This document shows, one piece after another, positions 3,121-63,680 of a stretch of DNA of 64,000 bases (positions are counted from its first letter, which is position 1; each line of letters begins with the position of its first letter). The DNA is from Thermodesulfobacteriota bacterium (lineage in GTDB: Bacteria > Desulfobacterota > Desulfobaccia > Desulfobaccales > 0-14-0-80-60-11), in NCBI GenBank assembly GCA_040757175.1, contig JBFLXM010000049.1, forward strand, positions 29,532-93,531, given 5' to 3'. The position numbers were made by a program, and so were the translations under genes. The notes beneath the pieces are model-generated. The model saw only the letters and a program-made list of their open reading frames with translations. It was not told where the DNA came from and ran no database searches.

Positions 3121-3155
3121 TAAAAACTAAAAACTAAAAACCAAAAACTAAAAAC
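3121..3155. repeat. Period-7 tandem array TAAAAAC x5 (one CAAAAAC), ending TGTATTTAA directly before ATG 3164
   Basis: Direct reading. Fills the spacer between the stop at 3117 and ATG 3164. Confidence 0.9.
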
Positions 3156-3163
3156 TGTATTTA

Positions 3164-3346
3164 ATGCGGGTTTATGTAAACAATAAGCCGGTGGAACTCC
3201 TGCCGGGCATGACTGTCAGGCATGCGTTGCTTCAGGCCGGGCTGCTGGGGCAGATTGAGGCGGGCCGGAAGGTCTACGACGACTGGGGCAACGAAGTGGG
3301 ACTGGCAGGCGCCCTCTCTGCCGAGATGAAGATTTGGGTCAGATAA
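3164..3346 (+). CDS. Small hypothetical protein (60 aa), possibly a ThiS/MoaD-like beta-grasp without the C-terminal GG
   Basis: The ORF MRVYVNNKPVELLPGMTV... resembles the N-termini of small sulfur-carrier-like proteins. No SD. Overlaps the next gene. Confidence 0.4.
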   Translation: MRVYVNNKPVELLPGMTVRHALLQAGLLGQIEAGRKVYDDWGNEVGLAGALSAEMKIWVR

Positions 3347-3354
3347 AGGAGCCG

Positions 3355-3948
3355 ATGTCCATGGCTGAGATCGAATTGCCGGAGCCTGAGGAATTGGAGG
3401 AAAAGAAAAGCGAGCCCTTTACCAAGAGGGTGGCCCTGACCACCGCCATCTTCGCGGTCATCCTGGCCATCACCTCCCTGGGGGGGAGCAACGCCATGAA
3501 GGAGATGCTCCTGGCCCAGCAGCAGGCCTCGGACCAATGGGCCTTCTACCAGGCCAAGGTGATCCGGGAACACCTGTACCGCCAGCAGAAACAGCGTTTG
3601 GAATTGGACCTCCTGGAGAAAGAGGCCCTCAAGCCGGAAGTCAGGCAGCGCTATGAGGCTTTGCTCCAGCAGACCTCCAAGGAAGCGGAACGGTACGGTC
3701 TGGAAAAGAAAGACATCCGCAAGGAGGCCGAAAAGCTGGAGCATGAACGGGACATCAACCGCAATAAGGACCCCTACTTCGACTACGCCGAGGTCCTGCT
3801 GCAGATCGCCATTGTTATGGCCTCCATCTCCATTCTGGCCCATTCCCGCAGGATTTTCATTTTCGCTTTGGTCTCCGCGGCCCTGGGCGCTTTATTGTCC
3901 CTGAACGGCTTTCTGTTGATCCTCCGCATACCTTTCTTACATCATTGA
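3355..3948 (+). CDS. DUF4337-family membrane protein
   Basis: N-terminal TM, WAFYQAKVIRE motif, long charged helix, C-terminal LLQIAIVMASISIL TM pair. AAGGAG lies upstream of ATG 3355 (ATG 3361 is an alternative). Confidence 0.7.
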   Translation: MSMAEIELPEPEELEEKKSEPFTKRVALTTAIFAVILAITSLGGSNAMKEMLLAQQQASDQWAFYQAKVIREHLYRQQKQRLELDLLEKEALKPEVRQRYEALLQQTSKEAERYGLEKKDIRKEAEKLEHERDINRNKDPYFDYAEVLLQIAIVMASISILAHSRRIFIFALVSAALGALLSLNGFLLILRIPFLHH

Positions 3949-3955
3949 CAGGAGT

Positions 3956-4011
3956 AAGGGCGAATCTGTTATCCGCCTCCAATTTCGGGGAAACACCAGA
4001 TTCGCCCCTAC
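3956..4011. repeat. REP-like inverted repeat (AGGGCGAATCTG ... CAGATTCGCCCCTAC)
   Basis: Arms are complementary and end in the CGCCCCTAC signature shared with five other loci. Confidence 0.6.
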
Positions 4012-4021
4012 CCCTGTTATA

Positions 4022-4056
4022 CCGTTTCCGGTTTTCAGTTTTCGGTTTTCGGTAAA
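4022..4056. repeat. Period-7 tandem array CCGTTTC CGGTTTT CAGTTTT CGGTTTT CGGTAAA
   Basis: Direct reading. The minus strand gives CCGAAAA units, the same family as 32823, 61874 and 63646. Lies between convergent genes. Confidence 0.9.
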
Positions 4057-4139
4057 ATGATTCCCAATTATCAATAAGTTAGTAATTAGGTTTGTTGCAG
4101 CAGAAACCGAACTTGATATTATCCCCTCAAAAAGACCAA

Positions 4140-4670
4140 TTAAAACCACAGAAAAAAACCGTTGGCCATGTAAAGGAGGCCCACCGCGCTGAAGGCCAGG
4201 CCCGCGGCCCACATCATCTTCCTTTTGAGCAGCGCGGCCACCGCGGACATCATGATGGCGATCTGCAGCAGCATCACCGCCAGGGCGAAGGCGCTGTTAT
4301 GCCTTTTTAGGATCTCTTGCTCCTTGATGAGGTTTTCCACTTCGGTTTTGATCTGCTTCTTCTCCTGATCATACCGGTTGATTTCCTGGTCATAATCCTT
4401 AATTTTAGCCTTTAGAAACTGCTGCACCTGGGGGTTGGGGTTGGCCAACAGGTTGGCATAACTCAGGATGTCCCGGTTCAGCCGGAAACTGTGCTCCTTG
4501 ATGCTCTTGGACTGGTAATAGGCCCAGTGGTTGGCTTCCCTGGTGGTATGAATCTGCACCTTGGTGGAGTAGCTGGAGGCCTTCAGGGAAGAGATGGCCG
4601 CACACACGGCCAGAATGGTGGTGGTCAGGGCCACCCACTGGATCCAGGTCTCTTTGGGAGGCTCGGCCAT
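4140..4670 (-). CDS. DUF4337-family membrane protein (paralogue of 3355..3948, convergent)
   Basis: WAYYQSKSIKE motif and LLQIAIMMSAVAAL C-terminal TM. Start moved to the ATG preceded by AAGGAG (M10 of track ORF 4140..4697). Confidence 0.7.
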   Translation of the reverse strand: MAEPPKETWIQWVALTTTILAVCAAISSLKASSYSTKVQIHTTREANHWAYYQSKSIKEHSFRLNRDILSYANLLANPNPQVQQFLKAKIKDYDQEINRYDQEKKQIKTEVENLIKEQEILKRHNSAFALAVMLLQIAIMMSAVAALLKRKMMWAAGLAFSAVGLLYMANGFFLWF

Positions 4671-4990
4671 TTGGTCTCCTTTCTTGGCTTGATTCAAGAG
4701 ATAAGTGGATATGGCCGCATAATCTTACCATCCCCGGACCGGAGGGGCAACCGGGAGGCCGTGGTCCTCCGGGGTTTGCCGCAACTCCGTTAGTGCATTT
4801 GCGAAATATTATTGATAAAATAATCGCTAAACTGGATGAGGTGCAAGTTACAGCCGCGCCTCCTGGGCGGCGGCTGGCGTTCTTTCCTCCAAAATGCCGG
4901 AGGCCAAACGTTTCGCGGCCTGGGCTCCGGCTGCTATGCTCGCATAAACTGGACAGTATTTAGTTTAGTTTAGTTTAAAGGAAGCCAAAA

Positions 4991-7900: not shown

Positions 7901-9955
7901 AGTCTTCTGTCCCTAGACTCAGACCGCTGCCTGTGCATTAACGTTTGCAAGGGGGCCGTAGCTCAGGATTTGCCCTACTACACCCCCGGCTCCTCCTGTT
8001 ATATCAACAGTCTTTCCCACCTTTTGGCCACGGCCTCCCCGGGACTGCTGGGCGAAACCCGCAACGTCTGCCTCCGGTTTGGTTATGAGTCGGTGGCCCT
8101 GATTCCCATTGTTTTTGGGGGAAGCATCTTGGGGCTGATCCACCTGGCCGACCGCCGGGAGAACATGGCGCCTCTGAGTCTGGTGGCGCGGCTGGAAAGA
8201 ATCGGCCTACAGCTAGGCACGGCCATCAACCGGGTGCGCGCGGAAGAGGCATGGCGCCGGGCCTTGGCTGAGTCCCGGCGGCGCCAGGCGGAGATTTCCG
8301 CCCTGCTCCAGGCCACCCGGGCGGTGCTGGAGGCCGGCACCTTCCTGGAACTCTCCCGCTCCATCTATGGTTCCTGCAAGGAATTGATCGGGGCCTCTTC
8401 CGGTTACATCGCCCTCCTTACCGCCGACGGCCAGGAGAACGAAGTCCTTTTTCTGGACCCCGGCGGGCAGGCCTGCCAGGTGGACCCCTCTCTGCCCATG
8501 CCGGTGAGGGGCCTGCGGGCGGAGGCCTGCCGCACCGGCAGGACGGTGTACCACAATGATTTCTCCGGCAGCGATTACGCCCAACTTCTGCCCCCGGGCC
8601 ACGTGGGCCTGGACAATGTCCTCTTCGCCCCCCTGGTGGTGAAAGGCAAGGTTGTGGGGCTCCTGGGCCTGGGCAACAAACCCGGGGGCTACACGGCCAA
8701 CGACGCCCGCCTGGTTGCCGGGTTCGGGGAGCTGGCGGCCATGGCCCTGGTCAACAACCGGGCCGAAGAAGAGCGGGAAAGGCTGATCCAGGAGTTGGAG
8801 ACGGAGCGGGCCCGGCTGCAGGCCATCATCGCCAGTGCGCCGGAGGCCATCGTCGTGGCCGATGCCGGCGGACGCATGGTCATGGCCAATCCCGCGGCGG
8901 AACGGCTTTACTACCAGCCTTTTGAGGAGGGTGAAGGCCTGGAAGGCTGCGCCTTGTTCCAGCTCTGCCATGGGGACGGCTCCACCTGTGTCCCCGGCAA
9001 TCAGCCGCTGCTCCGTTCGGCCACGGCCGGGGAGACCCACCGCAACCTGGAGATGATCCTCACCTGGCCCGACGGCCAGCGCCGGGATCTGCTGGTGAAC
9101 ACCGCGCCCCTCAAAGACCACCTGGGCCGCAGCAGCGGCGCGGTGGGCCTCTTCCAGGACATTACCCAGCGGAAACAGGTGGAGGAGAAAATCCGGAATC
9201 TAAACGCCGAACTCGGAGACCGCATCCGGGAAGTCAGTGAACGCACCCTGCAATTGGAAGCCGCCAACAAGGAACTGGAAGCCTTTTCCTATTCCGTGTC
9301 CCACGACCTGCGCTCCCCCCTGCGGGCCATCGAGGGCTTTGCCCGCATCCTCCTGGAAGAACATGGGGCCGAATTGGCGGAGGAAGCCTTGCGCCTGCTC
9401 AACGTGATTCGCAGCAACACCCTCATTATGGGGGAATTGATCGACGACCTCCTGGCCCTTTCCCGCTTGGGACGCCAGGAAATAAAGGCCCAAAAAATCG
9501 ATCCGGGGGGCCTGGTCACTTCGGTCTTCGGGGAACTGCGGGCCCAGGCTCCGGAACGGCAAATGCAGCTCATTTTGAACCCCCTGCCTCCGATCTACGG
9601 TGACCGCTCCCTGATCAATCAGGTCCTGGTAAATCTATTGGGGAACGCCGTCAAATTCACCGAATCCAGGGAAAAGACCATAATTGAGGTGGGTGGATGG
9701 ACAGAAGGCAAAGAGGATATATACTTTGTTAAAGATAACGGGGTAGGCTTTGATATGCGTTATGTGGATAAAATTTTCGGGGTTTTCCAGCGTCTGCACC
9801 GGAGGGAGGACTTTGACGGCACCGGCGTGGGCCTGGCCATTGTCCAGCGCATTATCAACCGGCACGGAGGCCGGGTCTGGGCCACCGGCAAGGTGGACCG
9901 CGGGGCTACTTTTTATTTTGCCCTGCCGCACAAAGGAGAAGATAGTGATAAATAA
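4991..9955 (+). CDS. Giant hybrid sensor histidine kinase: N-terminal REC, multiple PAS and GAF domains, Q/E-rich coiled coil, HisKA, HATPase_c
   Basis: 1654 aa. REC (ILVAD...DLVLLDLKL). PAS with [18 protein letters not shown] segments. [24 protein letters not shown] coiled coil. H-box SHDLRSPL. G-boxes DNGVGF and GTGVGLAIV. Confidence 0.9.
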
Positions 9956-9965: not shown

Positions 9966-10391
9966 ATGGAAATCATTTTGATTGAAGACAATCCCCATGA
10001 TGCCGAGCTGGTCCTCAGGGCCCTGAAAAAACACGGACTGGCCAACAAGGTGCAACTGCTCCAGGATGGGGCGGAGGCCCTGGACTTCATTTTCGCCACC
10101 GGCGCTTATGCGGGGCGGGATCTTAATAATCGCCCCAAGTTGATCCTCCTGGACCTGAAGCTGCCCAAGGTGGACGGCCTGGAGATTCTGCGCCGGATTA
10201 AAGGGGATGAGCGGACCAGGTCGATCCCGGTGGTGGTCATGACGTCCTCCCAGGAAGAAAAGGACATCGTGGAAAGTTACAGTCTGGGAGTGAATAGCTA
10301 CATCGTCAAACCCGTGGATTTCGATAAGTTCGTCCAATCCGTGGCCGACCTGGGTCTCTATTGGCTGTTGCTGAACAAGGTGCCGGGATGA
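9966..10391 (+). CDS. Single-domain response regulator (REC only)
   Basis: [16 protein letters not shown]..., [19 protein letters not shown]. The ATG lies 10 nt after the kinase stop, inside track ORF 9750..10391. Confidence 0.85.
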
Positions 10392-10392
10392 A

Positions 10393-10427
10393 GCAGTAAG
10401 CAGTAAGCAGTGAGCAGTGAGCAGATA
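10393..10427. repeat. Period-7 tandem array GCAGTAA x2, GCAGTGA x2, GCAGATA
   Basis: Direct reading. Begins 2 nt after the stop at 10391. The track's GTG start 10410 lies inside it. Confidence 0.9.
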
Positions 10428-10496
10428 ATTGGCACTCTAAGCTCTGGCTCCAAACTGCTCGCTGCTTACAGTTCACAATTTCAGGGTGAACCGGAC

Positions 10497-12030: not shown

Positions 12031-12702
12031 TTGGAACACTCTTATCGTATCGTTCTGGCCGATGACCATGCCATGTTCCGCCGGGGGGTAAAGAGAATTA
12101 TCCAGGAAAACCAAGAACTGGAAGTGGTGGGAGAGGCGGCTGATGGCCTGGAATTATTAGAAATTATCAAGAGATCTCCACCGCATATGGTGATCGCCGA
12201 CGTCTCCATGCCCAATCTTCGGGGGCTGGAGGCGACCCGGGAAATCAAAATGTCCTTCCCTGCCATCAAGGTCATCATCCTCACCATGCATAAAGACAAG
12301 GAGTATCTCTATCACGCCCTCGCGGCCGGGGCGGAGGGCTATTTGCTGAAAGAAGACGCCGATATCGAGTTGTTTTCCGCCATCAAGACCATCCGCCAGG
12401 GAGGGACCTATATTTCCCGCCTCCTGGCCCCCCAAATGACGGATATCTTTATGGAGCGGCAGCAGTTGCGGGAAAGGCAGGGCAGGTTGCCGGGGGAGCT
12501 TTTAAGCACCCGGGAAAGGGAGATCATTAAACTCATCGCCGAAGGCAAATCCAGCAGAGAGATTGCCGACCTCCTGTATATCAGTTCCCGGACGGTCCAG
12601 CACCACCGGGCCAATATCATGAGGAAACTGAACTTCAAGAAGACCGCAGACCTGGTGAAGTACGCCATTCAAAAGGGGTATACCTCCGCGGACGGCAGTT
12701 GA
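12031..12702 (+). CDS. NarL/FixJ-family response regulator (REC + LuxR-type HTH)
   Basis: IVLADDH, VIADVSMP, LSTREREIIKLIAEGKSSREIADLLYISSRTVQHHRANIMRKL. Confidence 0.9.
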   Translation: MEHSYRIVLADDHAMFRRGVKRIIQENQELEVVGEAADGLELLEIIKRSPPHMVIADVSMPNLRGLEATREIKMSFPAIKVIILTMHKDKEYLYHALAAGAEGYLLKEDADIELFSAIKTIRQGGTYISRLLAPQMTDIFMERQQLRERQGRLPGELLSTREREIIKLIAEGKSSREIADLLYISSRTVQHHRANIMRKLNFKKTADLVKYAIQKGYTSADGS

Positions 12703-12746
12703 TCCTGGCGACGCCCCACTTATCTGTCTAATTCTTTTCCTACCAA

Positions 12747-12777
12747 ATAGGTAGTTTTACCTATGCCTAAATAGGTA
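12747..12777. promoter_or_regulatory. 31-bp heptamer operator candidate ATAGGTA-N4-TACCTAT-N6-ATAGGTA
   Basis: Direct reading. TACCTAT fits the NarL heptamer consensus TACYYMT. The same architecture recurs at 13801-13831. Confidence 0.55.
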
Positions 12778-13203
12778 TTACTGCTGATTTACTTTGCCCC
12801 CCGCAAAATAATAAATGTATCTTAGAGCCTGCTTCTGGCGGCGCCGCGGCTATGGCATTGCCTGGACTGGGCTCAAAGGATCCGGAAATGGGATGGCGCC
12901 ATAAAAAGGCAGACATGGCGGAGAGCAAAGAACTTCGGATTGTGGGGCTCCTGCCGTCGCGGCTTCATGACCGTTTATACGCGGCCCCCCTATCCTTTAG
13001 AAAAATCAAACTGGAGCTGGCTCTTCCCCCTTTGCGCACCGTTAAGTTGTCCTACCGGCAGTTGGGATCTTTCCAGGGAAGAAAGGTTTGGGAGAGCAGC
13101 CTGAGTTTTTCGTATTTTCATTAAACTTTTTGGTCTTGAAAGGATGAAAAAGACCAATATGTTTGATCAACATGTGCCTGCATGGATGCATGAGGAAAAA
13201 ACT

Positions 13204-13614
13204 ATGGGAAGGCCATATTCCGTAGTATTGGCTGATAGCCATGACATGGTCCGTCAGGAGGTCAGGAGAATTATTGAAACAATAGGAGATATCCAGGTAG
13301 TGGGAGAGGCCAGTGATGGATTTCAGCTTTTAGATGTTTTGAAAGCCACGGTTCCAGATATGGTGGTTGTTGATATTTCTATGCCAAGCCTTAGAGATAT
13401 TGAAGCGATTAGAAAAATAAGGGCGTTGTATAGCGATATCAAACTGTTGTTTTTATCGATGCATGAACGTAAGGAATACCTGAATTATGCCTTAGACTTA
13501 GGTGCTGATGGTTTTATTTGTAAACTAAACTTAGACATGGAGTTGTGTCCGGCAATAGGAAGGATACGTGGTGGAGAAGTATATATTTCACCACTTGTCT
13601 TAAAAGGATCATAA
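13204..13614 (+). CDS. REC-only paralogue of the NarL-type regulator (no HTH), in a clearly AT-richer segment
   Basis: YSVVLADSHDMVRQEVRRII...VVVDISMPSLRD...LFLSMHERKEYLNYAL aligns along its length with 12031..12702 and stops where the linker/HTH would begin. Confidence 0.7.
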   Translation: MGRPYSVVLADSHDMVRQEVRRIIETIGDIQVVGEASDGFQLLDVLKATVPDMVVVDISMPSLRDIEAIRKIRALYSDIKLLFLSMHERKEYLNYALDLGADGFICKLNLDMELCPAIGRIRGGEVYISPLVLKGS

Positions 13615-13800
13615 AGTAATTGTTAATAACATTGCCGCATTTCAACCGGCAACCAAGGAGAGTGGCAAATATCCGCCATTGCCCTGGGAAGGGACGGCCG
13701 AGACAGCCCAGCGTTTTCTCCCAGCCTGTCCCAAAAAAGGTGAGCGTACATCGGCTCCTATCATTAGCCCGACAAATTTCTGCTCTGCCGGCGAATTCAG

Positions 13801-13831
13801 ATAGGCATTTTTACCTAGTCCCAAATAGGCA
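13801..13831. promoter_or_regulatory. Second copy of the 31-bp operator candidate ATAGGCA-N4-TACCTAG-N6-ATAGGCA
   Basis: Direct reading. Identical 4- and 6-nt spacings to 12747-12777. About 110 nt upstream of ATG 13942. Confidence 0.55.
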
Positions 13832-13941
13832 TTTTGGCCGATTGATTTTTCCTTTAAAAAAGGGTTGTATCGACTCTGCAGCAGTCTTCTAACCTGGTGA
13901 AAATGATATTTCACCGGCAGCGTTTAAGAGGAGATGTGATC

Positions 13942-15140: not shown

Positions 15141-17558
15141 TTATTGAGAAATACCTGGGGGAGACAGGGCCTGGAGCTTGCTTTCCAGGGCCTGCCGCGC
15201 CGGGGCCGGCAAATCCCGGCGCGCCAGTCCCCGGCGGTAGACCTGCCTGGCCTCCTCCCCTTTTCCTTGTTCCTGGAAAATCTCCCCCAAGAGAAAATAG
15301 GCCGGCGCAAAGGCTGGCTGCTCCGCCAGCAGCCGGCGCAATTCCGGGATTGCCGCCTGCAAGTCCCCCTTTTGCCGCTGGTAGAAGGCCAGGGTGTAGG
15401 CGTACTTGGGCTGGTCCTGCCGGAGTTTCCGGGCCTTTGCCAGCCAAAGCAAGGCCTCGGTTAAGCGGTCCGGGGCCAGGAGCACCCCCAGGTTATAGGC
15501 GGCTGCAGCCAATTCCGGGTCCGCTTTAAGGGCCGACCGCAGAGCCTGTTCCGCGGCCCTTTGATCTCCCTTTTCCGCCAGCACCAATCCCAAGTTGAAA
15601 TTGGCCGGAGCATTTTCTGGGTCGAGGCGGAGGGCCCGGCGCAGGGAGGCCTCCGCTTCCCCGGCCTGCCCCATCCTGGCCTGGGCAATGGAGCCGTTGA
15701 CCAGCGGCATAACCGCATCCGGCCGCAGGCGGGAGGCGGTGGTGAACGCGGCCAGGGCCAGGCCGGGTTCTCTCCGGTCCAGATAATAGTTTCCCAGGTT
15801 GTAGTGGGAGGCCCAATCATCAGGACGTGCGGTCAGGGAGGCCAGGAGTTCCCGGTCGGCCTTTTCCAGCCGCAACTGCTCCGCGGCGCTAAGCAATTCT
15901 CGGGGATAGGCCGCCAGGGTGCGGGCGGCCCGGATGCGCACCAGGCGGTAATCATCCCCCACCGCGGCGAGCAAGGCGTCCCGGGCCTCCGGAGGGTAAT
16001 GCCCCTCCAGACCCGCGGCCGCGGCTCCCCGCACCAGGGGCGAGGCGTCTTTTAGAGCCTGAGCCAGGGCCGGCCACTTGCGGGGATCGCCACAGGGAGC
16101 CAGGAGCCGGATCAGACCGGCGGCGTAAACTTCGTCCCGGGCGGGGTCATTAATATACTGCAAAATCTCCGGCAACCGGGACCAATCCCGCCGCCGGGCC
16201 GCGGCCAGCAGGGCCGCCCGCCGCAACACCTCTTTCTGGTAATCCCGCTGCTGCCATTGCCGCACCTGTTGATCCGCCCAGGCCGCGTCCTTATCCCGAT
16301 GGCAGAGGTTGCAGGCGTTGGGCGACTGAAACGCCAGGGTGGCCGCGGGCGCGGGCGGACGCAGGGAGTGGTCGCTCCGGCGCATGCGCGCGAACTCGGT
16401 TAAGGGCATATGGCAGGAGATGCACTGGGGCGCGCCCGGTTTATCCGGCGGATGGCGGGTATGCGCGGCGGCGTTGGCCACTCTCTGCCCGTGGCAGGGG
16501 AGGCAGGCCCGGTTGGCCTTCTCCGGGGCTTGGAAGCGGTAGCGGCCGCTGGAGGTGTGGCAGTGGAGGCAGGATAACTTGCCCGATTTGACACAGGGGC
16601 TGGTGAGCCAGAGGGTCAGGGTAAAATTCTCCCCCAAATCCCGGGCGTCCGGGTAAAAGTCCGCATCCTCCAGGGTGACGAGGTCATAGTGGTCGAAGAA
16701 GCGCTCCCCCGGAGTATAGGCGGGGGTCAGGGGGATCATCTTGGCGTGGCAGGGGGAGCAGGTGTCGTTATGCTGGGCAATGGTGAATTTTTTGCTGCTG
16801 ATGATTTTCAGGTCCGGGGGCACGGTCCCCGGGGGCGCCTCCCGGCAGATCCGGTTGTGTTCCGCTCCCGGGCCGTGGCAGGTCTCGCAGTTGATGCCCG
16901 GCTCGGTCCAGGCGGAGTGATAAGTGTCGGTCTGAAGATCGTAGTTGGAGGAAAACTGGCTGACGTGGCAACCATAGCAGGCGGTGTTGAAGGTGAGTAG
17001 GGGGTCCTGCCAGTAAAGCGGTTTCTCCCGCTGTACGGTTCCCAGGTGGCGCAGCATGCTCCGGGTGGTGTCGAACCATTTTTTCTTCCGCACGTCGTAG
17101 GCCACCGGCAGAACCTGGAGACGGCCCTTGTCCATGGGGGTTAAGAAATAATAGACATTCTTGCCCCCCAGGGCCTGGGCCATCCGGTATTTCCTTTCCC
17201 CCTGGGGGCCATGCTCCAGTACCCAGCCGGCGCCCTGATCGCTGACGGCCCGGTAGCGATATTCCTTTATGTGAATAGGGTCTGGGGCGAAGGTGATCCT
17301 GGTTTCCAGGAACTCCGGGGTCACGGGTTGCATGGCCAGGCCGTGGTGGGAGGTGGACCAGAGCTTATAAAATTTTTCGTGGCACTCCCGGCAACTGGCG
17401 GCCCCGGCAAAGCCGCGGCCCGGGGCGGCCGCAGGCGCACCCCGGGGGCCCGGGGCCGGGGTCCCGGGCCACAGCAGCCAGATCCCTGATAGGGCCAGGA
17501 CAAGGCCCGACCCCATTGCCACCCCTAGCAGAACCTTGCGGAGATTGGCGGGGCTCAC
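15141..17558 (-). CDS. Membrane-anchored octahaem cytochrome c fused to HEAT-like and TPR repeats
   Basis: Eight CxxCH motifs: CRECH, CYGCH, CETCH, CSPCH, CLHCH, CLPCH, CISCH, CNLCH. N-terminal TM. C-terminal half is HEAT/TPR-like. GTG start overlaps the upstream stop (GTGA). Confidence 0.85.
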   Translation of the reverse strand: MSPANLRKVLLGVAMGSGLVLALSGIWLLWPGTPAPGPRGAPAAAPGRGFAGAASCRECHEKFYKLWSTSHHGLAMQPVTPEFLETRITFAPDPIHIKEYRYRAVSDQGAGWVLEHGPQGERKYRMAQALGGKNVYYFLTPMDKGRLQVLPVAYDVRKKKWFDTTRSMLRHLGTVQREKPLYWQDPLLTFNTACYGCHVSQFSSNYDLQTDTYHSAWTEPGINCETCHGPGAEHNRICREAPPGTVPPDLKIISSKKFTIAQHNDTCSPCHAKMIPLTPAYTPGERFFDHYDLVTLEDADFYPDARDLGENFTLTLWLTSPCVKSGKLSCLHCHTSSGRYRFQAPEKANRACLPCHGQRVANAAAHTRHPPDKPGAPQCISCHMPLTEFARMRRSDHSLRPPAPAATLAFQSPNACNLCHRDKDAAWADQQVRQWQQRDYQKEVLRRAALLAAARRRDWSRLPEILQYINDPARDEVYAAGLIRLLAPCGDPRKWPALAQALKDASPLVRGAAAAGLEGHYPPEARDALLAAVGDDYRLVRIRAARTLAAYPRELLSAAEQLRLEKADRELLASLTARPDDWASHYNLGNYYLDRREPGLALAAFTTASRLRPDAVMPLVNGSIAQARMGQAGEAEASLRRALRLDPENAPANFNLGLVLAEKGDQRAAEQALRSALKADPELAAAAYNLGVLLAPDRLTEALLWLAKARKLRQDQPKYAYTLAFYQRQKGDLQAAIPELRRLLAEQPAFAPAYFLLGEIFQEQGKGEEARQVYRRGLARRDLPAPARQALESKLQALSPPGISQ

Positions 17559-32794: not shown

Positions 32795-32843
32795 CCGACC
32801 TCCCCATTTCCCCCCTTCGCTTAACAGAAAACAGAAAACCGTC

Positions 32844-33599
32844 TCAAGCATACCTATCCACTTCATCATCATTTACGGCAGGGGGGGCGGGGCGCTCCTT
32901 CTTCAATTCTTCCTGCCAATATTGATTGGCCAGTTGAATCAGGGCCTCCCGGGGGGCCAGGTCCTGGGTCAGGGCCTGCATGGTCTCTTGACTCACTTTT
33001 CCCCGGCGCACCACCTCTTCCCCGGCCAGGAGGGCCGCGTCCAGCACCATTCCCACCTGGAGCTGCAAGGGCGGCATGGTGAGAAACTCGGAGGAATGGC
33101 GGTAGATTTCAGCTACCAAGTGGGGGCCGAAAATCAGGCGCATATTCAGGGACAGGGCCTCAAAATTGTATTGCTCCGGGAAGCCGCAAACGCTTAAGAC
33201 CGCGATCCGGGGGACCCGGGCCACCCGGAAGGGGTGGCCGGTGCGGTTCCCCCGGTCGGTAAGGAAGGGCTCCAACATGGGCAAGGTGCGTTCGATGAAG
33301 GATTTCATGCGGGCGTTCATGCTGAAGTGATACAAGGGCGTGGCCAGCACCGCCAGGTCGGCCCCCAGGAAGCGCCCGAACAATTCCCCGGCCATGTCGT
33401 CCTGCTGTACACACTGCCCTTTATTCTGGAGCCAGCAGCCGAAGCATCCCAGGCAATGCTTGATCCGGTAGTCTCGCAGATAAAGGGTTTCCGCGGCTGC
33501 CCCGGCCTGCCTGGCTCCCTCCAGAAACTTTTGCAGGATGAGCTCGGTCTTACTGGTCTGGTTATCCCGGGGACTGCTGTTGAAAGCCACGATATTCAT
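32844..33599 (-). CDS. Flavodoxin-like-fold NAD(P)H-dependent FMN reductase / iron-sulfur flavoprotein-like
   Basis: MNIVAFNSSPR...CLGCFGCW...GQC motif typical of Isf/NADPH-FMN reductase family proteins. Confidence 0.7.
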   Translation of the reverse strand: MNIVAFNSSPRDNQTSKTELILQKFLEGARQAGAAAETLYLRDYRIKHCLGCFGCWLQNKGQCVQQDDMAGELFGRFLGADLAVLATPLYHFSMNARMKSFIERTLPMLEPFLTDRGNRTGHPFRVARVPRIAVLSVCGFPEQYNFEALSLNMRLIFGPHLVAEIYRHSSEFLTMPPLQLQVGMVLDAALLAGEEVVRRGKVSQETMQALTQDLAPREALIQLANQYWQEELKKERPAPPAVNDDEVDRYA

Positions 33600-38507: not shown

Positions 38508-38606
38508 GTTGCTAGGCATCGAAAGGGCAAACTACTCCGAAAGGGTAGGACGCAAAGTCTCCGACCTACAGCCCCTGGGCCACGGTAGCGGGATTGCCGA
38601 AATGCA
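38508..38606 (+). promoter_or_regulatory. c-di-GMP-I (GEMM-I) riboswitch aptamer
   Basis: AAGGGCAAACTACTCCGAAAGGGTAGGACGCAAAGTCTCCGACCTACAGCCCC...ACGGTAGCGGGATTGCCGAAATGC. Matches the conserved GGCAAAC / GAAA tetraloop / GGACGCAAAG-CUCCG-CCUA / GGUAGCGGGGUU-CCGA blocks of GEMM-I. Confidence 0.85.
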
Positions 38607-49460: not shown

Positions 49461-49495
49461 GAGTTTTGAGTTTCGAGTTCTCAGTTTTCAGGCTG
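49461..49495. repeat. Period-7 tandem array GAGTTTT GAGTTTC GAGTTCT CAGTTTT CAGGCTG
   Basis: Direct reading. Lies between the stop of 49530..49994 and the start of lolD. Confidence 0.85.
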
Positions 49496-49529: not shown

Positions 49530-49994
49530 TCAACCTCTTTCGTCATCCCCATGTCCATTGCTTGCGTGGTTAATTTTGCCCTCTAATTCAAGCGGCTTCA
49601 AATTCTTGACCAGTTTGCAAAACAGAAGGGAACCAAACAAAACAACGTAAGAGCTAGGCCAGGCCCCCACACCTGCATAAGGGGTAACGGCCGCCACCCA
49701 GAGCAGCACAGAGCCGAATACGATGGGTACTGCGACTCGAAGATTTCGTTCGCGCAAACAAAAATAGGCCGCTACAAAGGTTATTATCCCAGAGATAAAT
49801 GCCACCCCGTTGAAAGTGTCTCTGATAAAAGGATCAGAAAAGGTCTGAGAAAAGGTCTGTCCATAAGCAAGATCAGTCGGCGGCAATGATTTGTTTAATG
49901 CGACCACAAACACGAACGCCGTCAAATAGCTCCCAACAAAACTGATTACCAGTATCAAGAATGGATTATTTCTTTTCTTCATCCATAAAACCAC
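49530..49994 (-). CDS. Hypothetical 4-TM membrane protein, AT-richer than its neighbours, inserted between lolCE and lolD
   Basis: 154-aa ORF with four hydrophobic helices. No family recognised. Flanked on both sides by period-7 arrays. Confidence 0.55.
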   Translation of the reverse strand: MVLWMKKRNNPFLILVISFVGSYLTAFVFVVALNKSLPPTDLAYGQTFSQTFSDPFIRDTFNGVAFISGIITFVAAYFCLRERNLRVAVPIVFGSVLLWVAAVTPYAGVGAWPSSYVVLFGSLLFCKLVKNLKPLELEGKINHASNGHGDDERG

Positions 49995-50075
49995 TGACCA
50001 CTGACCACTGATTACTGGCCCCTGACCCCTAATCCCTGCCCTCTGCCCATTAACTGCTCACTGCTCACTGCTCAC
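49992..50075. repeat. Longest period-7 array (about 12 units): CCACTGA x3, TTACTGG, CCCCTGA, CCCCTAA, TCCCTGC, CCTCTGC, CCATTAA, CTGCTCA x3
   Basis: Direct reading (coordinates +/-1). Spans the whole spacer from the lolCE stop to the start of 49530..49994. Confidence 0.9.
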
Positions 50076-51316
50076 TCATATCTGATGGCCTCCACCGGGT
50101 CCAGCCGGGCCGCCTGCCAGGAAGGATACAGCGTGGCCACAAAGCTGATGGCCAGGGCCGCGCCGATGATGAACACCAGGTCCAGGCCATCCACCCTCAC
50201 CGGCAGGGTGGAAATATAGTAAACGTCCCGGGGCAGCTTGATGAACTCATAGCGCTTCAGCAGGCCGCAGAGGAACAGGCCCAATCCCACCCCGATGCTG
50301 GTGCCGATCAAACCGATGACCATGCCCTTGAGGATGAAGATCTGCATGATGCTCTGCCGGGTGGCGCCCATGGATTTGAGGATGGCGATGTCCTTGGTCT
50401 TTTTCATAACCATCATAAACAGGGTGCTGGCAACGCCGAACGCGGCCACCAGGATGATCAGGGTGAGGATGATGAACATGGCGATCTTTTCCAGCTTCAA
50501 AGCCGAAAAGAGGCTGCGGTTCATCTGCATCCAGTCCTTAGTGGTGAATTGGGGGCCTAATTTCTCCTGGATGGCCGCGGCGATCCGGTCCGCGGCGTAG
50601 ATATCCTTGACCTCCACTTCCAGGCCGGTGACCCGGTCTCCCAGGCCCAGGAACTCCTGCAAAGAGGGGATGCTGGTATAGACCAGGGTGTTGTCGAATT
50701 CATACATCCCGGAATGAAATATGGCGGTCACCCGGAAGGGTTTCATCCGGGGCATCCGGCCCATGGGAGTGAGGGTGCCCAGGGGGGAGATGATGTTCAG
50801 ATAGTCGCCGATATTGAGGTTCAGGTTGCGGGAGAGTTCGTTGCCGATGGCGATGCGGGGCGGGTCGCCCGGGGCCGCCTCCGCCAGGTCGGCAAAGCGC
50901 CCTTTCGACACTTCCAGGCCCCGGGGGCCCCCTTTGCGGATAGTCTCCAGGTCCAGGCCCCGGATCACCCCCCCGGAGATATTGCCGGGAGCGGAAAGCA
51001 TCACCTGGGTATAGATGAAGGGGTAGTCATCCACCACCCCGGGAACGGTTTTTACCCGGGCCGCCACCTGGCGGTAGTCCGTCAGGCTGGTGCCGTGCTT
51101 GAGGACGATGATGTGGGCGTTGACGCTGAGGATCTTCTTCTTCAAGTCCTGGTCAAAGCCGGTCATCACCCCGATGACCACAATGAGGGCCATGACTCCC
51201 ACGGCGACGCCGGCTACGGAAATCAGGGTGCTCCAGGAGATGAAGCCTTTTTGCCGTTTGACCCCCCGCAGGTAGCGCAGGGCCACAAAAGTCTCAAAAA
51301 AACCCAAACATTTCAC
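50072..51316 (-). CDS. Lipoprotein-releasing ABC transporter permease LolC/E (FtsX/MacB-type)
   Basis: 414 aa. 4-TM FtsX-like topology with a large periplasmic loop. lolD nearby. GTGA-type overlap with lysS. Confidence 0.85.
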   Translation of the reverse strand: MKCLGFFETFVALRYLRGVKRQKGFISWSTLISVAGVAVGVMALIVVIGVMTGFDQDLKKKILSVNAHIIVLKHGTSLTDYRQVAARVKTVPGVVDDYPFIYTQVMLSAPGNISGGVIRGLDLETIRKGGPRGLEVSKGRFADLAEAAPGDPPRIAIGNELSRNLNLNIGDYLNIISPLGTLTPMGRMPRMKPFRVTAIFHSGMYEFDNTLVYTSIPSLQEFLGLGDRVTGLEVEVKDIYAADRIAAAIQEKLGPQFTTKDWMQMNRSLFSALKLEKIAMFIILTLIILVAAFGVASTLFMMVMKKTKDIAILKSMGATRQSIMQIFILKGMVIGLIGTSIGVGLGLFLCGLLKRYEFIKLPRDVYYISTLPVRVDGLDLVFIIGAALAISFVATLYPSWQAARLDPVEAIRYE

Positions 51317-57496: not shown

Positions 57497-57531
57497 GTCG
57501 GCTGTTAGCTGTCAGCGATCAGCTTTCAGCC
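57497..57531. repeat. Period-7 array GTCGGCT GTTAGCT GTCAGCG ATCAGCT TTCAGCC
   Basis: Direct reading. Inverted partner at 57662-57692. Confidence 0.85.
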
Positions 57532-57598: not shown

Positions 57599-57658
57599 GT
57601 AGGGGCGAACCTTGTGTTCGCCCCGATGCTGCCGGGCGAACACAAGGTTTGCCCCTAC
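57599..57658. repeat. REP-like double hairpin GTAGGGGCGAACCTTGTGTTCGCCC-N10-GGGCGAACACAAGGTTTGCCCCTAC
   Basis: The two 25-nt arms are complementary with one mismatch. Each arm is itself a GGCGAAC...GTTCGCC hairpin. Confidence 0.85.
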
Positions 57659-57661
57659 GAA

Positions 57662-57692
57662 GGCTGACCGCTGGTAGCTGAAAGCTGACAGT
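57662..57692. repeat. Period-7 array GGCTGAC CGCTGGT AGCTGAA AGCTGAC AG, ending GTTTTAA
   Basis: Direct reading. Inverted relative to 57497-57531. Followed by a GGAGG RBS and GTG 57720. Confidence 0.85.
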
Positions 57693-57719
57693 TTTAATTA
57701 ATGCTGGAGGACTGATTCA

Positions 57720-58436
57720 GTGCCGAAGTTAGAAGTCAACGTCGATCACGTGGCCACGCTCCGCCAGGCCCGGCTGGGTGCGGAGCCCGATCCGGTAACC
57801 GCCGCGGCCCTGGCGGAGCTGGCCGGCGCCGACGGCATCATTGTCCACCTCCGGGAAGACCGCCGTCACATCCAGGACCGGGATCTGCAACTGTTGCGGC
57901 AGACGGTGAAGACCCGCCTCAATTTGGAGATGGCCGCCACCGAGGAAATGTTGCATATCGCCAGGGAAGTGAAGCCGGATCTGGTGACCCTGGTGCCGGA
58001 GAAACGCCAGGAGCTCACCACCGAAGGGGGCCTGGAAGTAGCTGGTTTTATCGGCTTCCTCCGGGACTATGTACAAAAACTCCGGGAAGGGGGCTTGCAG
58101 GTGAGCCTCTTCGTGGACCCGGTCCCCAAGCAGTTGGACGCGGCCCTGGAGGCGGGGGCCCAATGGGTGGAGCTGCACACCGGCGCTTATGCGGAGGCCC
58201 CGTCCGCCAAAGAGGCCCAGCGCCTTTTTGAAGAGCTTCTGAGCGCGGCCCGCCATGCCCGGAGCGCGGGCCTGCGGGTCAAATGCGGCCACGGCCTGAA
58301 CTATACCAACATCAAGCCTTTCCGGGGGCGGCCGGAGTTCGAGGAGTTCTCCATCGGCCACAGCATCATGGCCCGGGCCATCCTGGTGGGCATGGAACGC
58401 GCGGTCCGGGAGATGATCGCCTTAATCAGGGGTTAG
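57720..58436 (+). CDS. pdxJ: Pyridoxine 5'-phosphate synthase PdxJ
   Basis: [29 protein letters not shown] motifs. GTG start with a GGAGG RBS. Confidence 0.9.
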
Positions 58437-58467
58437 GGGGCAGGGGCCAGGGGTCAGGAATTAGGGG
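58425..58467. repeat. Period-7 array TCAGGGG TTAGGGG GCAGGGG CCAGGGG TCAGGAA TTAGGGG, ending TTTAAAG
   Basis: Direct reading. The first two units overlap the pdxJ 3' end. Confidence 0.85.
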
Positions 58468-58533
58468 TTTAAAGTGTCATTCTGAACAGTTCCTCATGGG
58501 GGAGTGGCCCACCCCAAAGCATAAAAAGTGAAC

Positions 58534-58559
58534 GTAGGGGCGGGCGTCCCCGCCCGCCC
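58534..58559. repeat. REP-like hairpin GTAGGGGCGGGCG-TCC-CCGCCCGCCC
   Basis: GTAGGGGCG head and a complementary arm. Sits within a run of at least 8 unrelated hairpins (58470-58870). Confidence 0.65.
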
Positions 58560-60373: not shown

Positions 60374-60394
60374 TAATTTTTGGGGGAGGGGGCT

Positions 60395-60423: not shown

Positions 60424-60442
60424 GCTTCCTGGCCCTCGTATC

Positions 60443-61732: not shown

Positions 61733-61816
61733 GGGGTTCTCCTCGGCAGTAATTGAGCCTCCATTGTGGCACGACCGCCCGGGGATGACAAGGCCCTTTC
61801 CGGGGGGTAGGCAAAA

Positions 61817-61845
61817 TTGACAGTGACCACAGCAAATGCTAATAT
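61817..61845 (+). promoter_or_regulatory. Near-consensus sigma70-type promoter TTGACA-17-TAATAT
   Basis: Exact -35 consensus, 17-nt spacer, 5/6 match at -10. About 68 nt upstream of ATG 61913. Confidence 0.5.
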
Positions 61846-61873
61846 TTTAGGTATATTTGGGTATAAAGCTATT

Positions 61874-61908
61874 ACCGAAAACCGCAAACAGAAAACCGAA
61901 AACCGTCT
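61874..61908. repeat. Period-7 array ACCGAAA ACCGCAA ACAGAAA ACCGAAA ACCGTCT, ending GTCTTTAA directly before ATG 61913
   Basis: Direct reading. Lies between the candidate promoter and the start codon. Confidence 0.9.
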
Positions 61909-61912
61909 TTAA

Positions 61913-62149: not shown

Positions 62150-62265
62150 CCACAGAGACACGGAGGACACAGAGATTCACAGAGAATCTTTTTATTTATG
62201 CGGGTTCCCCACCAAAATAAAAAAGCTTCTCTCTGTGAAACTCTGTGCTCTCTGTGCCTCTGTGG
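62150..62265. repeat. Large imperfect inverted repeat of CACAGAG-type units flanking an inner A/T hairpin
   Basis: CCACAGAGACACGGAGGACACAGAGATTCACAGAGAA ... TTCTCTCTGTGAAACTCTGTGCTCTCTGTGCCTCTGTGG. Inner element TTTTTATTT...AAATAAAAA. Confidence 0.8.
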
Positions 62266-62286
62266 TAAGGTACTTAAGGAGGAATT

Positions 62287-62610
62287 ATGGCCAGAAAAGA
62301 ACTCTCCCTCACCGGCGCCTTGGCGGGGGGTATGGCCGGCTGGGTGGCGGAAGTGGCCATTCAGGAAGTCACCGGCCATCACATCACCACCGGGGTCCTG
62401 GAACTTTTGGGCGCGGCCGCGGGCCTCTGGCGCCTGGACCGGCGTTTGGGCGATGCTTTTAGGGACACCCTGGAACGGGCCCGGGATGACCGGGACGATG
62501 ACTACCGCCAGGTGAAGGCCCGCATTGCCGAACTGACCCAGGACCTGCCGGAACTCCGGGAGATCCTGTCCAACATGGTGGACGCGGGCATCCAGGCGCA
62601 AAAGGCTTAA
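62287..62610 (+). CDS. Hypothetical protein (107 aa), Gly/Ala-rich N-terminus and acidic helical C-terminus
   Basis: Strong RBS TAAGGAGG 5 nt upstream. No family recognised. Confidence 0.55.
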   Translation: MARKELSLTGALAGGMAGWVAEVAIQEVTGHHITTGVLELLGAAAGLWRLDRRLGDAFRDTLERARDDRDDDYRQVKARIAELTQDLPELREILSNMVDAGIQAQKA

Positions 62611-62612
62611 AG

Positions 62613-62990
62613 ATGCTGGGAGTGAACCTGCTGGTGCGGGCCGGGCGCAGCCTGCTGGCCGGGCCGGTGGCGGACGCGGGCTGGCTGCCCGCCAAGTACT
62701 ACCGCCACCTGGTCCTGGAGGCCCTGGAGGAGGACGATTTTCCCGGGGCCTTGCATTATCTCCGCTGGACCGATGAGCCCTTGCTGGCCCAACTTCTCAT
62801 CCTCCGGTTGCGCCTCCTGGCCCGGGGGCACCAGCAGCAGCGGGAGACTTTGGAGGGTCTGATGGCCAACGGCCTCCCGGCGGAGCGCCGGGAGAACTGC
62901 CGGGCACTGCTGGAGAAGCAGGAACAAGCCCTGGCACTGCTGAGAGAATATGAGAACCAGGCTCTGCGGTCTGTTAAAAAGGAAACTTGA
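62613..62990 (+). CDS. Hypothetical helical protein (125 aa)
   Basis: Starts 2 nt after the previous stop. L/R/E-rich helical repeats. No family recognised. Confidence 0.5.
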   Translation: MLGVNLLVRAGRSLLAGPVADAGWLPAKYYRHLVLEALEEDDFPGALHYLRWTDEPLLAQLLILRLRLLARGHQQQRETLEGLMANGLPAERRENCRALLEKQEQALALLREYENQALRSVKKET

Positions 62991-63000
62991 GATAGGAGCC

Positions 63001-63104
63001 GAGGGGAAGGGGTTAAAAGGTTAAAAGGGGAAGGGGGTAAGAGGCGTTCTGGGATCATTTCCCTCTTCCCCTCTTTCCCTCTTCCCCTTTTCCCCTTTTT
63101 CCCC
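63001..63104. repeat. 43-nt purine-rich tract, 17-nt spacer, then a 44-nt pure pyrimidine tract (long imperfect hairpin, H-DNA-prone)
   Basis: GAGGGGAAGGGGTTAAAAGGTTAAAAGGGGAAGGGGGTAAGAGG ... CCCTCTTCCCCTCTTTCCCTCTTCCCCTTTTCCCCTTTTTCCCC. Confidence 0.85.
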
Positions 63105-63140
63105 AATTCAACGATCTTTCCTTCGCAATTCCTTCAAGAT

Positions 63141-63590
63141 ATGGACATGGATCATAAATACATGGGCGAGGCCCTGGACGCGGCCCGGAAGGGCCTGGCC
63201 GCGGGGGAGGTGCCCGTGGGCGCGGTGCTGGTGGCGGAGGGAGAGGTCCTGGCCCGGGCCTATAACCGTCCCATCGGCCTGAGCGACCCCACGGCCCACG
63301 CCGAGGTCCTGGCGCTGAGAAACGCCGCGGCCCGCCTGGGGAATTACCGGTTGCCCGGCACCACGATTTATGTTACCATCGAACCCTGTATCATGTGCGT
63401 GGGGGCCTTGATTCAGGCCCGGGTGGCCCGTCTGGTCTTCGGCGCTCCCGACCCCAAGGGGGGGGCCTGCGTCTCCCTGTACCGCCTCCCGGAAGACCCC
63501 CGCCTCAACCACCGCCTGGAGGTAACGGGCGGCGTCCGGGAAGAGGAATGCCGGGAACTGCTGCAAGAGTTTTTTAAGGCTAAAAGATGA
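63141..63590 (+). CDS. tadA: tRNA adenosine(34) deaminase TadA
   Basis: HAEVLALR and PCIMCVGAL zinc-binding motifs, 149 aa. Confidence 0.9.
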   Translation: MDMDHKYMGEALDAARKGLAAGEVPVGAVLVAEGEVLARAYNRPIGLSDPTAHAEVLALRNAAARLGNYRLPGTTIYVTIEPCIMCVGALIQARVARLVFGAPDPKGGACVSLYRLPEDPRLNHRLEVTGGVREEECRELLQEFFKAKR

Positions 63591-63600
63591 GCATTTAGGG

Positions 63601-63622
63601 GTGGCGTACCGCCGCTCTTTTT
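63601..63622 (+). terminator. Short hairpin terminator candidate
   Basis: GTGGCG-TAC-CGCCGC (includes one G-U pair) followed by TCTTTTT. Confidence 0.4.
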
Positions 63623-63645
63623 GAGGTCGGGGAAACCCCATCCTT

Positions 63646-63680
63646 ACGGAAAACAGAAAACAGAAAACGGAAAACAGTCT
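63646..63680. repeat. Period-7 array ACGGAAA ACAGAAA ACAGAAA ACGGAAA ACAGTCT, ending GTCTTTAA directly before the tRNA-Ser 5' end
   Basis: Direct reading. Same unit family and same terminal box as 61874-61912. Confidence 0.9.

Follow-up and report, generated by a model that had tools for sequence, protein, structure and literature searches.

Hypervariable heptanucleotide arrays occupy the untranslated spacers of an uncultured Thermodesulfobacteriota lineage

The 64-kb stretch of a Thermodesulfobacteriota metagenome-assembled genome (MAG) analysed here, called the window throughout, has Desulfobaccales as its closest named relatives and carries short tandem arrays of 7-nt units in the spacers between its genes. 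Tandem Repeats Finder (TRF) and our own scan put the number of these arrays at 8–11, all of them in spacers. They are hypervariable heptanucleotide microsatellites that are confined to untranslated spacers and display a polarity linked to transcription, and a subset of them occurs as hairpin-forming inverted pairs. The arrays and the features adjoining them are as follows, with gene starts taken from automatic calls or from our own:

3121–3156, plus strand: (TAAAAAC)x5.1 array (TRF, 5.1 copies), beginning 3 nt past the stop codon of a 5′-nucleotidase gene and ending 7 nt short of ATG 3164, the start of a conserved 60-aa open reading frame (ORF) without a Shine-Dalgarno (SD) sequence
3157–3163, plus strand: GTATTTA heptad that directly abuts ATG 3164
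4022–4053, minus strand: AAAACCG-type array of 4.3 units, A-rich on the minus strand (TRF, 4024–4053, 4.3 copies), in the convergent spacer of two DUF4337 genes and adjoining a palindrome (3957–4011) that resembles repetitive extragenic palindromic (REP) sequences
4957–4979, plus strand: (TTTAG)x3.8 expansion, of period 5 and not 7, preceding the ribosome-binding site (RBS) of a gene for a 1654-aa hybrid histidine kinase
10391–10424, plus strand: (AAGCAGT/GAGCAGT)x4.9 array (TRF, 4.9 copies), first arm of a hairpin, beginning on the stop codon of a response-regulator gene
10452–10471, plus strand: degenerate ACTGCTC-type inverted partner, second arm of the 10391 hairpin (13/14 match)
32823–32844, plus strand: (AACAGAA)x2.4 array with a CGTCT junction, the weakest member (TRF, 32823–32839, just 2.4 copies), in a convergent setting where the junction runs into the stop codon of a minus-strand FMN-reductase gene
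49461–49491, minus (sense) strand: CTSAAAA-type array of 4 units (TRF, 49461–49488, 4.0 copies, 76% matches), about 30 nt upstream of the start of a lolD-like ABC gene
49988–50079, minus (sense) strand: composite of about 12 heptads (TRF, 49990–50027, 5.4 copies, and 50053–50076, 3.4 copies), overlapping the lolE stop codon and reading GAGCAGT x3, CAGRGGN x5, CAGTGGT x3, then TTTATGG and ATG 49982
50019–50048: G-quadruplex (G4)-type motif inside the composite array
57500–57531, plus strand: AGCTGTC-type array, arm 1, 21 nt past the ybeY stop codon
57599–57658, plus strand: REP doublet (GTAG...CTAC palindrome), the inner hairpin between the two array arms
57662–57703, plus strand: AGCTGAC-type array, arm 2, inverted relative to 57500, with a GTTTTAATTAATG tail and ending just before the GGAGG RBS of pdxJ
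57720–58436: the pdxJ gene, whose product is 100% identical to a protein of a 'Thermodesulfobacteriota bacterium' MAG
58426–58467, plus strand: (YAGGGGN)x6 array followed by TTTAAAG (TRF, 58426–58458, 4.7 copies), whose first units are the C-terminus and stop codon of pdxJ (..ATC AGG GGT TAG)
58429–58453: G4-type motif inside the 58426 array
61817–61845, plus strand: promoter-like TTGACA-17-TAATAT with a TG extension, conserved in two of the relatives introduced below (L001 and L165)
61874–61912, plus strand: (ACCGAAA)x4.6 array (TRF, 61874–61905, 4.6 copies) followed by a TCTTTAA heptad immediately before ATG 61913, the start of a conserved 78-aa ORF without an SD
63646–63684, plus strand: (ACRGAAA)x4 array (TRF, 63649–63677, 4.1 copies) followed by a TCTTTAA heptad immediately before the 5′ end of tRNA-Ser(CGA)
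63685–63778: tRNA-Ser(CGA)

An earlier annotation of the same DNA (the original prediction) had proposed a window-wide set of period-7 micro-arrays that are confined to spacers and resemble the short tandemly repeated repetitive (STRR) sequences of cyanobacteria, and TRF, our scan and shuffled controls all agree with it. When a single scoring scheme was applied to periods 4–12, with coding and intergenic sequence shuffled separately as a control, the window gave 0, 3, 4, 8, 1, 0, 0, 0 and 0 arrays, respectively; all 8 arrays of period 7 are intergenic, as compared to 0.0 in the shuffles, and period 7 is the only one enriched. Since TRF and the scan agree and the shuffles give 0.0, the period-7 arrays are real and far beyond chance. 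Four unit families (CAGGGGN, CAGTGRN, AGCTGNC and AAAACNG) recur at unlinked loci, and the earlier assignment of CAGTGAG, YAGGGG and ACMGAAA units to particular unlinked sites is seen in the sequence. The arrays at 57497 and 57662 are degenerate and were recognised by eye in the sequence and as an inverted pair; their description as mutually inverted was confirmed by the inverted-pair analysis, which also added the 10452–10471 partner arm, absent from the original prediction. The array at 32823, taken for three AACAGAA units, is present with a unit count of only 2.4. No Rfam family overlaps any of the arrays. Their origin as an assembly artefact was considered and ruled out, as the same arrays are found in independent assemblies from other samples.

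The window was compared to syntenic relatives that we grouped by the identity of their PdxJ or DUF4337 protein to that of the window: 99% (L170, L171), 95% (L001, L167–L169) and 88–89% (L002, L162–L166). In a metagenome scan, no relative closer than 84% was present among the matches listed. The near-identical strains L165 and L166, which come from different samples, differ by 5 substitutions and one 7-nt indel over 2019 nt, and this sole indel is located inside an array. Copy number, which the original prediction had singled out for comparison, is therefore not invariant, and orthologous spacers vary as well. The spacer of the 60-aa ORF carries 5.1 units in the window, 3.4 in L167–L169 and 1.6 in L170 and L171; the 5′ untranslated region (UTR) of the 78-aa ORF carries 4.6 ACCGAAA units in the window, about 4 diverged units in L001 and 3.4 in L165; and the post-pdxJ array has 6 units in the window, about 3 in L001, 3.7 in L162 and 3.6 in L165, with the last pdxJ codons and the stop codon always within its first units. 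The L167 counterparts of the 10391 and 10452 arms have 3 and 3.4 units, and the array at 49461 has about 3.6 units in L002 and is absent in L162, L164 and L165. The period-5 TTTAG run, with 3.8 units in the window, 2 in L170 and 1 in L167, likewise appears to be a local expansion.

The identity of the unit changes too. The array in the convergent DUF4337 spacer (4022) is identical in L170, and L167 and L168 have a GAGCAGT/ACTGCTC inverted pair in its place. The ybeY–pdxJ spacer displays AGCTGNC arms in the window and L002, CAGTGAT arms in L164 and L165 and, in L162, no more than a REP-like hairpin; the second arm of the window (57662) is conserved in L001. That one spacer can carry different unit families in the 95% and 89% relatives indicates a rapid turnover of arrays. 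The leader of tRNA-Ser at 63646 consists of 4 units and GTCTTTAA in the window, and L165 has the same layout with CAG/CGG swaps; five heptads and GTCTTTAA precede the tRNA there.

Slippage of this kind could in principle act as an on/off switch for the downstream genes, like the contingency loci of classical phase variation, and strains do differ in copy number. However, no array is located within a reading frame or stands between a −35 and a −10 element. Many are found 3′ of genes or in convergent spacers, and the genes concerned (pdxJ, tRNA-Ser, lolD/E, two-component genes) are housekeeping ones. As the arrays are located outside promoters and reading frames and adjoin housekeeping genes, we regard such switching as highly improbable.

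Two of the variable spacers contain further sequence of note. Between lolE and lolD, with heptamer arrays on both sides, lies an extra ORF for a 150-aa membrane protein (49530–49982, minus strand), which has no Pfam match, is absent in L162, L164 and L165, and persists only as a remnant in L002. Directly 3′ of the pdxJ array, several relatives carry a dispersed element that begins with TGTCATTCTGAAC(GGAGCGCAGCGAAGTGAAGAATCTC); it is located at 58471–58500 in the window, at about 865–900 in L001 and at about 10740–10790 in L162, and a reverse copy is present at about 3230–3260 in L170.

Placement relative to genes was analysed by a boundary-distance test on the 32 intergenic arrays of the window and four relatives; this and the statistics below draw on about 170 kb of sequence that is partly orthologous. 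Half of the arrays (16/32) are within 11 nt of a gene boundary, as compared to 8 expected under uniform placement (p ~8e-4). Five of the window's arrays reach or overlap a stop codon (3121, 10391, 32823, 50053 and 58428), and four end 7–9 nt short of a start codon or the 5′ end of the tRNA (3121, 49990, 61874 and 63646). The abutment to ATG 3164, ATG 61913 and the tRNA-Ser at 63685 described in the original prediction is evident in the sequence, and the starts that follow arrays without an SD are ATG 3164, 49982 and 61913. The broader claim that placement is tied to gene starts does not hold, given the five arrays at stop codons against four at starts or the tRNA. Nor are spacers upstream of genes enriched over convergent ones: array density, computed from small numbers, is 1.9/kb in co-directional, 1.75/kb in convergent and 0.44/kb in divergent spacers. 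Specificity for start codons was thus rejected, with convergent spacers nearly as dense as co-directional ones, and there is no sign of a preference for promoters or upstream regions. Because stop codons, convergent spacers and the 3′ sides of tRNAs hold arrays too, the arrays are not specifically start-associated; they fill spacers up to the first constrained sequence.

The promoter-like sequence at 61817–61845 would place the 61874 array within a 5′ UTR of about 60 nt. The proposal that this array makes up the whole 5′ UTR is right in that it lies inside the UTR and overstated in extent, for it takes up only the distal half. In L165, the stretch 15899–16480 contains tRNA-Ser genes with the CGA and GGA anticodons, each followed 6–8 nt downstream by a CAGTGRT-type array, and a 58-aa ORF between the two tRNA genes terminates within a CAGGGGT array.

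Many arrays are followed by a T-rich sequence on their 3′ side. GT(N0-2)TTTAA or GTTTAAA occurs at six array ends in the window (3157, 4973, 57691, 58467, 61905 and 63677), and loci outside the window show the same tendency, namely L165 18530 (ttttaaaag), 19246 (tttttttt) and 19359 (catttaatATG), and L002 (GGGGTTTAAATG). For 26 arrays of the window and its relatives, oriented by their flanking genes, TTTA is found within 12 nt of the sense-strand 3′ flank in 8/26 cases against a background of 7.7% (p = 5e-4) and at the 5′ flank in 1/26; TTT occurs at the 3′ flank of 15/26 arrays against a background of 24%. A single T-rich heptad precedes the ATG or the first tRNA nucleotide at 3121, 49990, 61874 and 63646, as if the arrays were in phase with the start, which we did not count as its register was chosen post hoc. 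The original prediction of a shared TTTAA terminal box therefore stands as an enrichment of the 3′ flank and fails as a strict shared element: a downstream run of T followed by A is a real tendency and not a fixed box, the L165 orthologue of the 61874 array terminating in AGTTTCCC, and a strict shared junction is present only in the AAAAC subfamily, where AAAACMGTCT occurs three times (32835, 61899 and 63671) as compared to 0.1 expected, always at an array end.

Outside the AAAAC subfamily, what looks like a common box is conserved local boundary sequence or a T-run, as exemplified by CTGTATTTA at the 60-aa gene and GTCTTTAA at the L165 tRNA-Ser. All relatives have CTGTATTTA before the 60-aa gene and keep CTG(T/C)ATTT(A/G) before its ATG. 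Owing to this conservation, the GTATTTA at 3157 is the gene's own AU-rich initiation region, and since the box is present with only 1.6 units upstream it predates the expansion of the array. The TTTAA box is, for the most part, an AU-rich conserved boundary sequence or a T-run adjoining the array, not the terminus of a mobile element. A function of the TTTAA before the tRNA as a promoter −10 element was rejected: it abuts the mature 5′ end, so that the start site would be inside the tRNA.

The exact junction does raise the question of whether the AAAAC subfamily, at the least, represents a dispersed micro-element that was copied between loci, by gene conversion or in a manner resembling REP sequences and their associated tyrosine transposases (RAYT), and did not originate locally. 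The excess of AAAACMGTCT at array ends, the TT with which the 5′ flanks end and the REP-like GTAG palindromes beside or inside array-bearing spacers are consistent with such copying. Yet the arrays lack target-site duplications and any more extended flanking sequence in common, the box of the 60-aa gene is older than the array next to it, and neither a transposase nor a RAYT gene was seen in the window. We consider this origin quite unlikely.

The arrays are oriented with respect to transcription. When one array was counted per independent spacer, the first where there are two (n = 16), the sense strand is purine-rich in 14 of the 16, and the remaining co-directional spacer sequence has a mean purine content of 0.505. 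The polarity switches with gene direction, being on the minus strand at 49–50 kb and on the plus strand at 57–63 kb, and the second array of a spacer, where present, is the complement of the first. Inverted partners in excess of shuffled flanks were found at 10391/10452 and 57500/57662 in the window, at 9295/9355 and 19246/19359 in L165, at 9874/9928 in L164 and at 17838/17894 in L167.

A possible reading of the polarity is that the arrays are multimeric mRNA sites for an RNA-binding protein that is oligomeric or binds cooperatively, like those of the S1, cold-shock, CsrA or HutP/TRAP type, and together define a post-transcriptional regulon. HutP, for instance, recognises NAG triplets 7 nt apart. 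The sense-strand bias agrees with such a protein, as do the fit of most units to C-A/C-G plus 4 nt, the position of arrays in place of an SD at ATG 3164, 61913 and 49982, and the retention of array positions across relatives; the same hypothesis has been put forward for the TAACTGA repeats discussed below (PMC4679880). However, there are at least four dissimilar unit families, unit identity is swapped at the same site between close relatives, arrays also occupy convergent spacers, overlie stop codons and flank tRNA genes on either side, the neighbouring genes are unrelated and housekeeping, and no candidate protein was identified. A dedicated RNA-binding protein is, on balance, unlikely.

Folded as RNA, the ybeY–pdxJ spacer has a dG of −108.4 kcal/mol (z −11.7), with the arrays as the outer stem and the REP doublet as the inner stem; 10386–10480 folds with a dG of −39.3 (z −4.5), and the L165 stretches 9290–9385 and 19243–19390 have z values of −6.3 and −5.5, respectively. 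The A-rich arrays at 3121, 61874 and 63646 have an RNA z of about 0 and are unstructured. The CAGGGGN arrays contain canonical G4-type motifs.

Such features could also act in the DNA itself, as G-quadruplex or cruciform tracts or as sites for nucleoid proteins or transcription factors that affect transcription, supercoiling or replication. The G4-type motifs within two arrays (58429–58453 and 50019–50048) and the inverted pairs, which could extrude as cruciforms, are compatible with this, and heptamers of Xanthomonas and Nostoc do form G4 structures (PMC4692102). Against it, G4 capability is limited to the CAGGGGN subfamily, the divergent, promoter-containing spacers are the least dense in arrays, and polarity keeps to the direction of transcription even across a reversal of gene orientation within 10 kb. 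Action at the DNA level is thus very unlikely.

Two kinds of sequence observed alongside are separate from the heptads. REP-like palindromes of the kind that form REP doublets (REPINs), starting with GTAGGGGCG and ending with CGCCCCTAC, are located at 3957–4011, 57599–57658 and 58534–58559 in the window, at about 9930–9965 in L162 and at about 2420–2480 in L170, in the same or other spacers; the one at 57599–57658 is a perfect doublet hairpin nested between the heptamer arms. A CT-rich repeat of period 8/16 (TTTCCCTCTTCCCCT x2.4, 63058–63096), upstream of a tadA-like deaminase gene, also fits a C-strand G4-type motif.

Tandem heptamers have been described elsewhere. The units of the cyanobacterial STRR heptamers are CCCCA(A/G)T (STRR1), TT(G/T)GTCA (STRR2) and CAACAGT (STRR3). 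Like the arrays described here, the STRR heptamers comprise several families tandemly repeated at many non-coding sites (Mazel et al. 1990, as cited in PMC4692102), and they differ in their hosts, which are (heterocystous) cyanobacteria and not Thermodesulfobacteriota. No window array contains an STRR1 or STRR3 doublet of these units, and a single near-STRR2 doublet is present (GTGGTCAGTGGTCA, 49995–50008), whose unit GTGGTCA is one mismatch per unit away from STRR2.

According to the summaries of Mrazek 2007 (Mrazek, Guo and Shah) given in PMC4679880 and PMC4692102, heptanucleotides are the commonest long simple sequence repeats (LSSRs) in most genomes and are over-represented in the intergenic DNA of many bacteria, and polymerase slippage has been put forward to explain them; in PMC4679880, long heptanucleotide repeats are described as phylogenetically sporadic. 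The arrays share with the LSSR class of 5–11-nt units the occurrence of intergenic tandem 7-nt units beyond chance, several types per genome, a sporadic distribution and length polymorphism between relatives. Tandem units exceed chance length (8 arrays against 0.0 in shuffles), period 7 predominates with all 8 arrays non-coding, and length varies by whole units, between L165 and L166 and at loci 3121, 10391, 58426 and 61874. The strand polarity and frequent inverted pairing seen here are not mentioned in these summaries of Mrazek 2007.

Closer in layout are the TAACTGA direct repeats of marine Beggiatoaceae, some cyanobacteria and Bacteroidetes, which occur in 2–6 copies (MacGregor 2015, PMC4679880), mostly a few nt upstream of starts without an RBS and before functionally unrelated genes, and which in Cyanothece strains show indels in 7-nt steps (PMC4679880). 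The arrays of the window resemble them in copy number, in the 7-nt steps between strains and in the unrelated functions of the downstream genes, and some of them likewise end a few nt before an RBS-less start and are oriented toward the gene. They differ in that they comprise several unit families and not one, and in that stop codons, convergent spacers and the surroundings of tRNAs hold arrays no less often than starts do. Start-abutting arrays without an RBS are present at 3121, 49990 and 61874 in the window and at 13139 and 19359 in L165, with an equal number at stop codons. The TAACTGA unit itself is missing, with 0 matches to TAACTGATAACTGA in the window at up to 2 mismatches; the nearest unit is TCACTGA, found before recR in L165. 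The architecture, which had been thought undescribed, is thus already in print for starts without an RBS (PMC4679880). No report of such repeats in Thermodesulfobacteriota was found in the literature searched, including surveys of prokaryotic repeats, which is weak negative evidence.

The G-rich GGGAATC heptamers of Xanthomonas and GGGGAYT heptamers of Nostoc, for which G-quadruplex formation was demonstrated (Rehm et al. 2015, PMC4692102), are similar to the arrays as spacer heptamers that vary in length and sequence among close species and occasionally form inverted pairs; in Xanthomonas, both copy number and sequence of the intergenic heptamers vary between species and inverted pairs occur (PMC4692102). 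In the window, however, G-rich CAGGGGN is one of four subfamilies and is located directly on or after stop codons. REP sequences, their bacterial interspersed mosaic elements (BIMEs) and REPINs likewise form hairpins in the spacers of co-transcribed or convergent genes, and REP-like GTAG palindromes co-occur with arrays (57599–57658). In contrast to them, the arrays consist of tandem heptads and lack a GTAG head, their arms change by slippage of units, and the genuine REP-like doublets (3957–4011 and 57599–57658) are separate from them. By unit sequence, the arrays fall outside the TAACTGA and STRR families; in every feature tested they match the general class of long heptanucleotide repeats.

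Considering these observations together, we are confident that the arrays belong, with the cyanobacterial STRR, the TAACTGA repeats of Beggiatoaceae and the GGGAATC repeats of Xanthomonas, to the class of heptanucleotide simple sequence repeats and change in whole units. That they also serve as RNA modules is a tentative proposal, to which we give somewhat less than even weight; the blend of the two is our best overall explanation and a reasonably probable one. The host, a genus-level clade of Desulfobaccales, is new, and the mechanism is already known. In this explanation, the arrays gain and lose 7-nt units, most simply by replication slippage. Only untranslated spacers retain them, since a period of 7 nt breaks the reading frame and stop triplets are present in many units; an enrichment of such triplets was given no weight owing to the small sample. 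The arrays spread as far as the first constrained base, be it that of a stop codon, of a start region or of the end of a tRNA. They would be transcribed with the flanking genes and be tolerated or weakly selected as RNA modules. Three forms of such modules may be envisaged: (i) inverted array pairs that form long hairpins in intercistronic or convergent spacers and might act as 3′-end, stabilising or terminator-like structures, (ii) purine-rich, unstructured A-rich arrays that could keep SD-less start regions and the tRNA leader single-stranded, and (iii) G-rich CAGGGGN arrays right after stop codons.

Several results weigh against this explanation. Slippage alone accounts for neither the few unit families at unlinked loci, nor the strand polarity, nor the exact AAAACMGTCT junction in three AAAAC arrays, and for this reason the rivals (an RNA-binding protein, G4 or cruciform action, copying between loci) stay alive. 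The retention of the five-heptad tRNA-Ser leader layout in an 89% relative hints at constraint. Conversely, no correlation of arm lengths in inverted pairs was seen among the relatives compared; paired arms vary in length independently, and no strong selection on stem length is therefore apparent.

It is also conceivable, though doubtful, that heptad arrays prone to slippage serve the clade as an evolvable RNA toolkit of fixed polarity, that is, for selected regulation and not as neutral microsatellites. A purine-rich array on a stop codon and its complement before the next start would then form a unit, gain and loss of heptads would tune the length of the hairpin or leader and hence the relative expression of the neighbours, and a heptad-reading RNA-binding protein might be the reader.

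Within the close clade, the number of arrays per 20 kb ranges from 3 (L162) to 12 (L165), and other Desulfobaccales (80–83% PdxJ identity) have 0–1 per 20 kb. In an outgroup panel of about 150 further pdxJ loci, from genomes and metagenome contigs, run through the same period-7 scan, Nostoc (L017) has 7 arrays in 20 kb at its pdxJ locus, Oscillatoria and single contigs of SAR324, Nitrospirae and KSB1 have 1–4 each, and most phyla have zero. The trait is patchy and lineage-specific. Arrays right after the pdxJ stop codon were also observed in Nostoc (L017, 10747), Nitrospirae (L023, 10723), KSB1 (L033, 10731) and Desulfonatronospira (L013, 10828), which may be a coincidence in array-rich genomes or mark a recurrent seeding site.

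The phylogenetically patchy phenomenon of heptanucleotide repeats is thereby extended to an uncultured Thermodesulfobacteriota lineage, with three regularities added: transcription-linked polarity; abutment to stop codons, starts and tRNA ends; and frequent inverted pairing. These constrain explanations of how 7-nt repeats accumulate, and polarity and the shared unit families are not predicted by pure slippage. In practical terms, the arrays are hypervariable strain markers, and they cause assembly breaks and miscalls of gene starts and stops in MAGs.

Three minor observations concern other sequence. The public contig of L001 begins, at positions 1–54, with Illumina adapter/index sequence (CGGCATACGAGAT...GCTCTTCCGATCT), an assembly artefact at the contig's end. 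The stretch 12700–13936 of the window has a GC content of ~0.48 as compared to ~0.59 and no confident gene by a crude caller, and is possibly foreign or degraded DNA. Finally, a full-length c-di-GMP-I riboswitch aptamer (RF01051) is located at 38516–38601 on the plus strand, with a score of 73 bits against a gathering threshold of 35.

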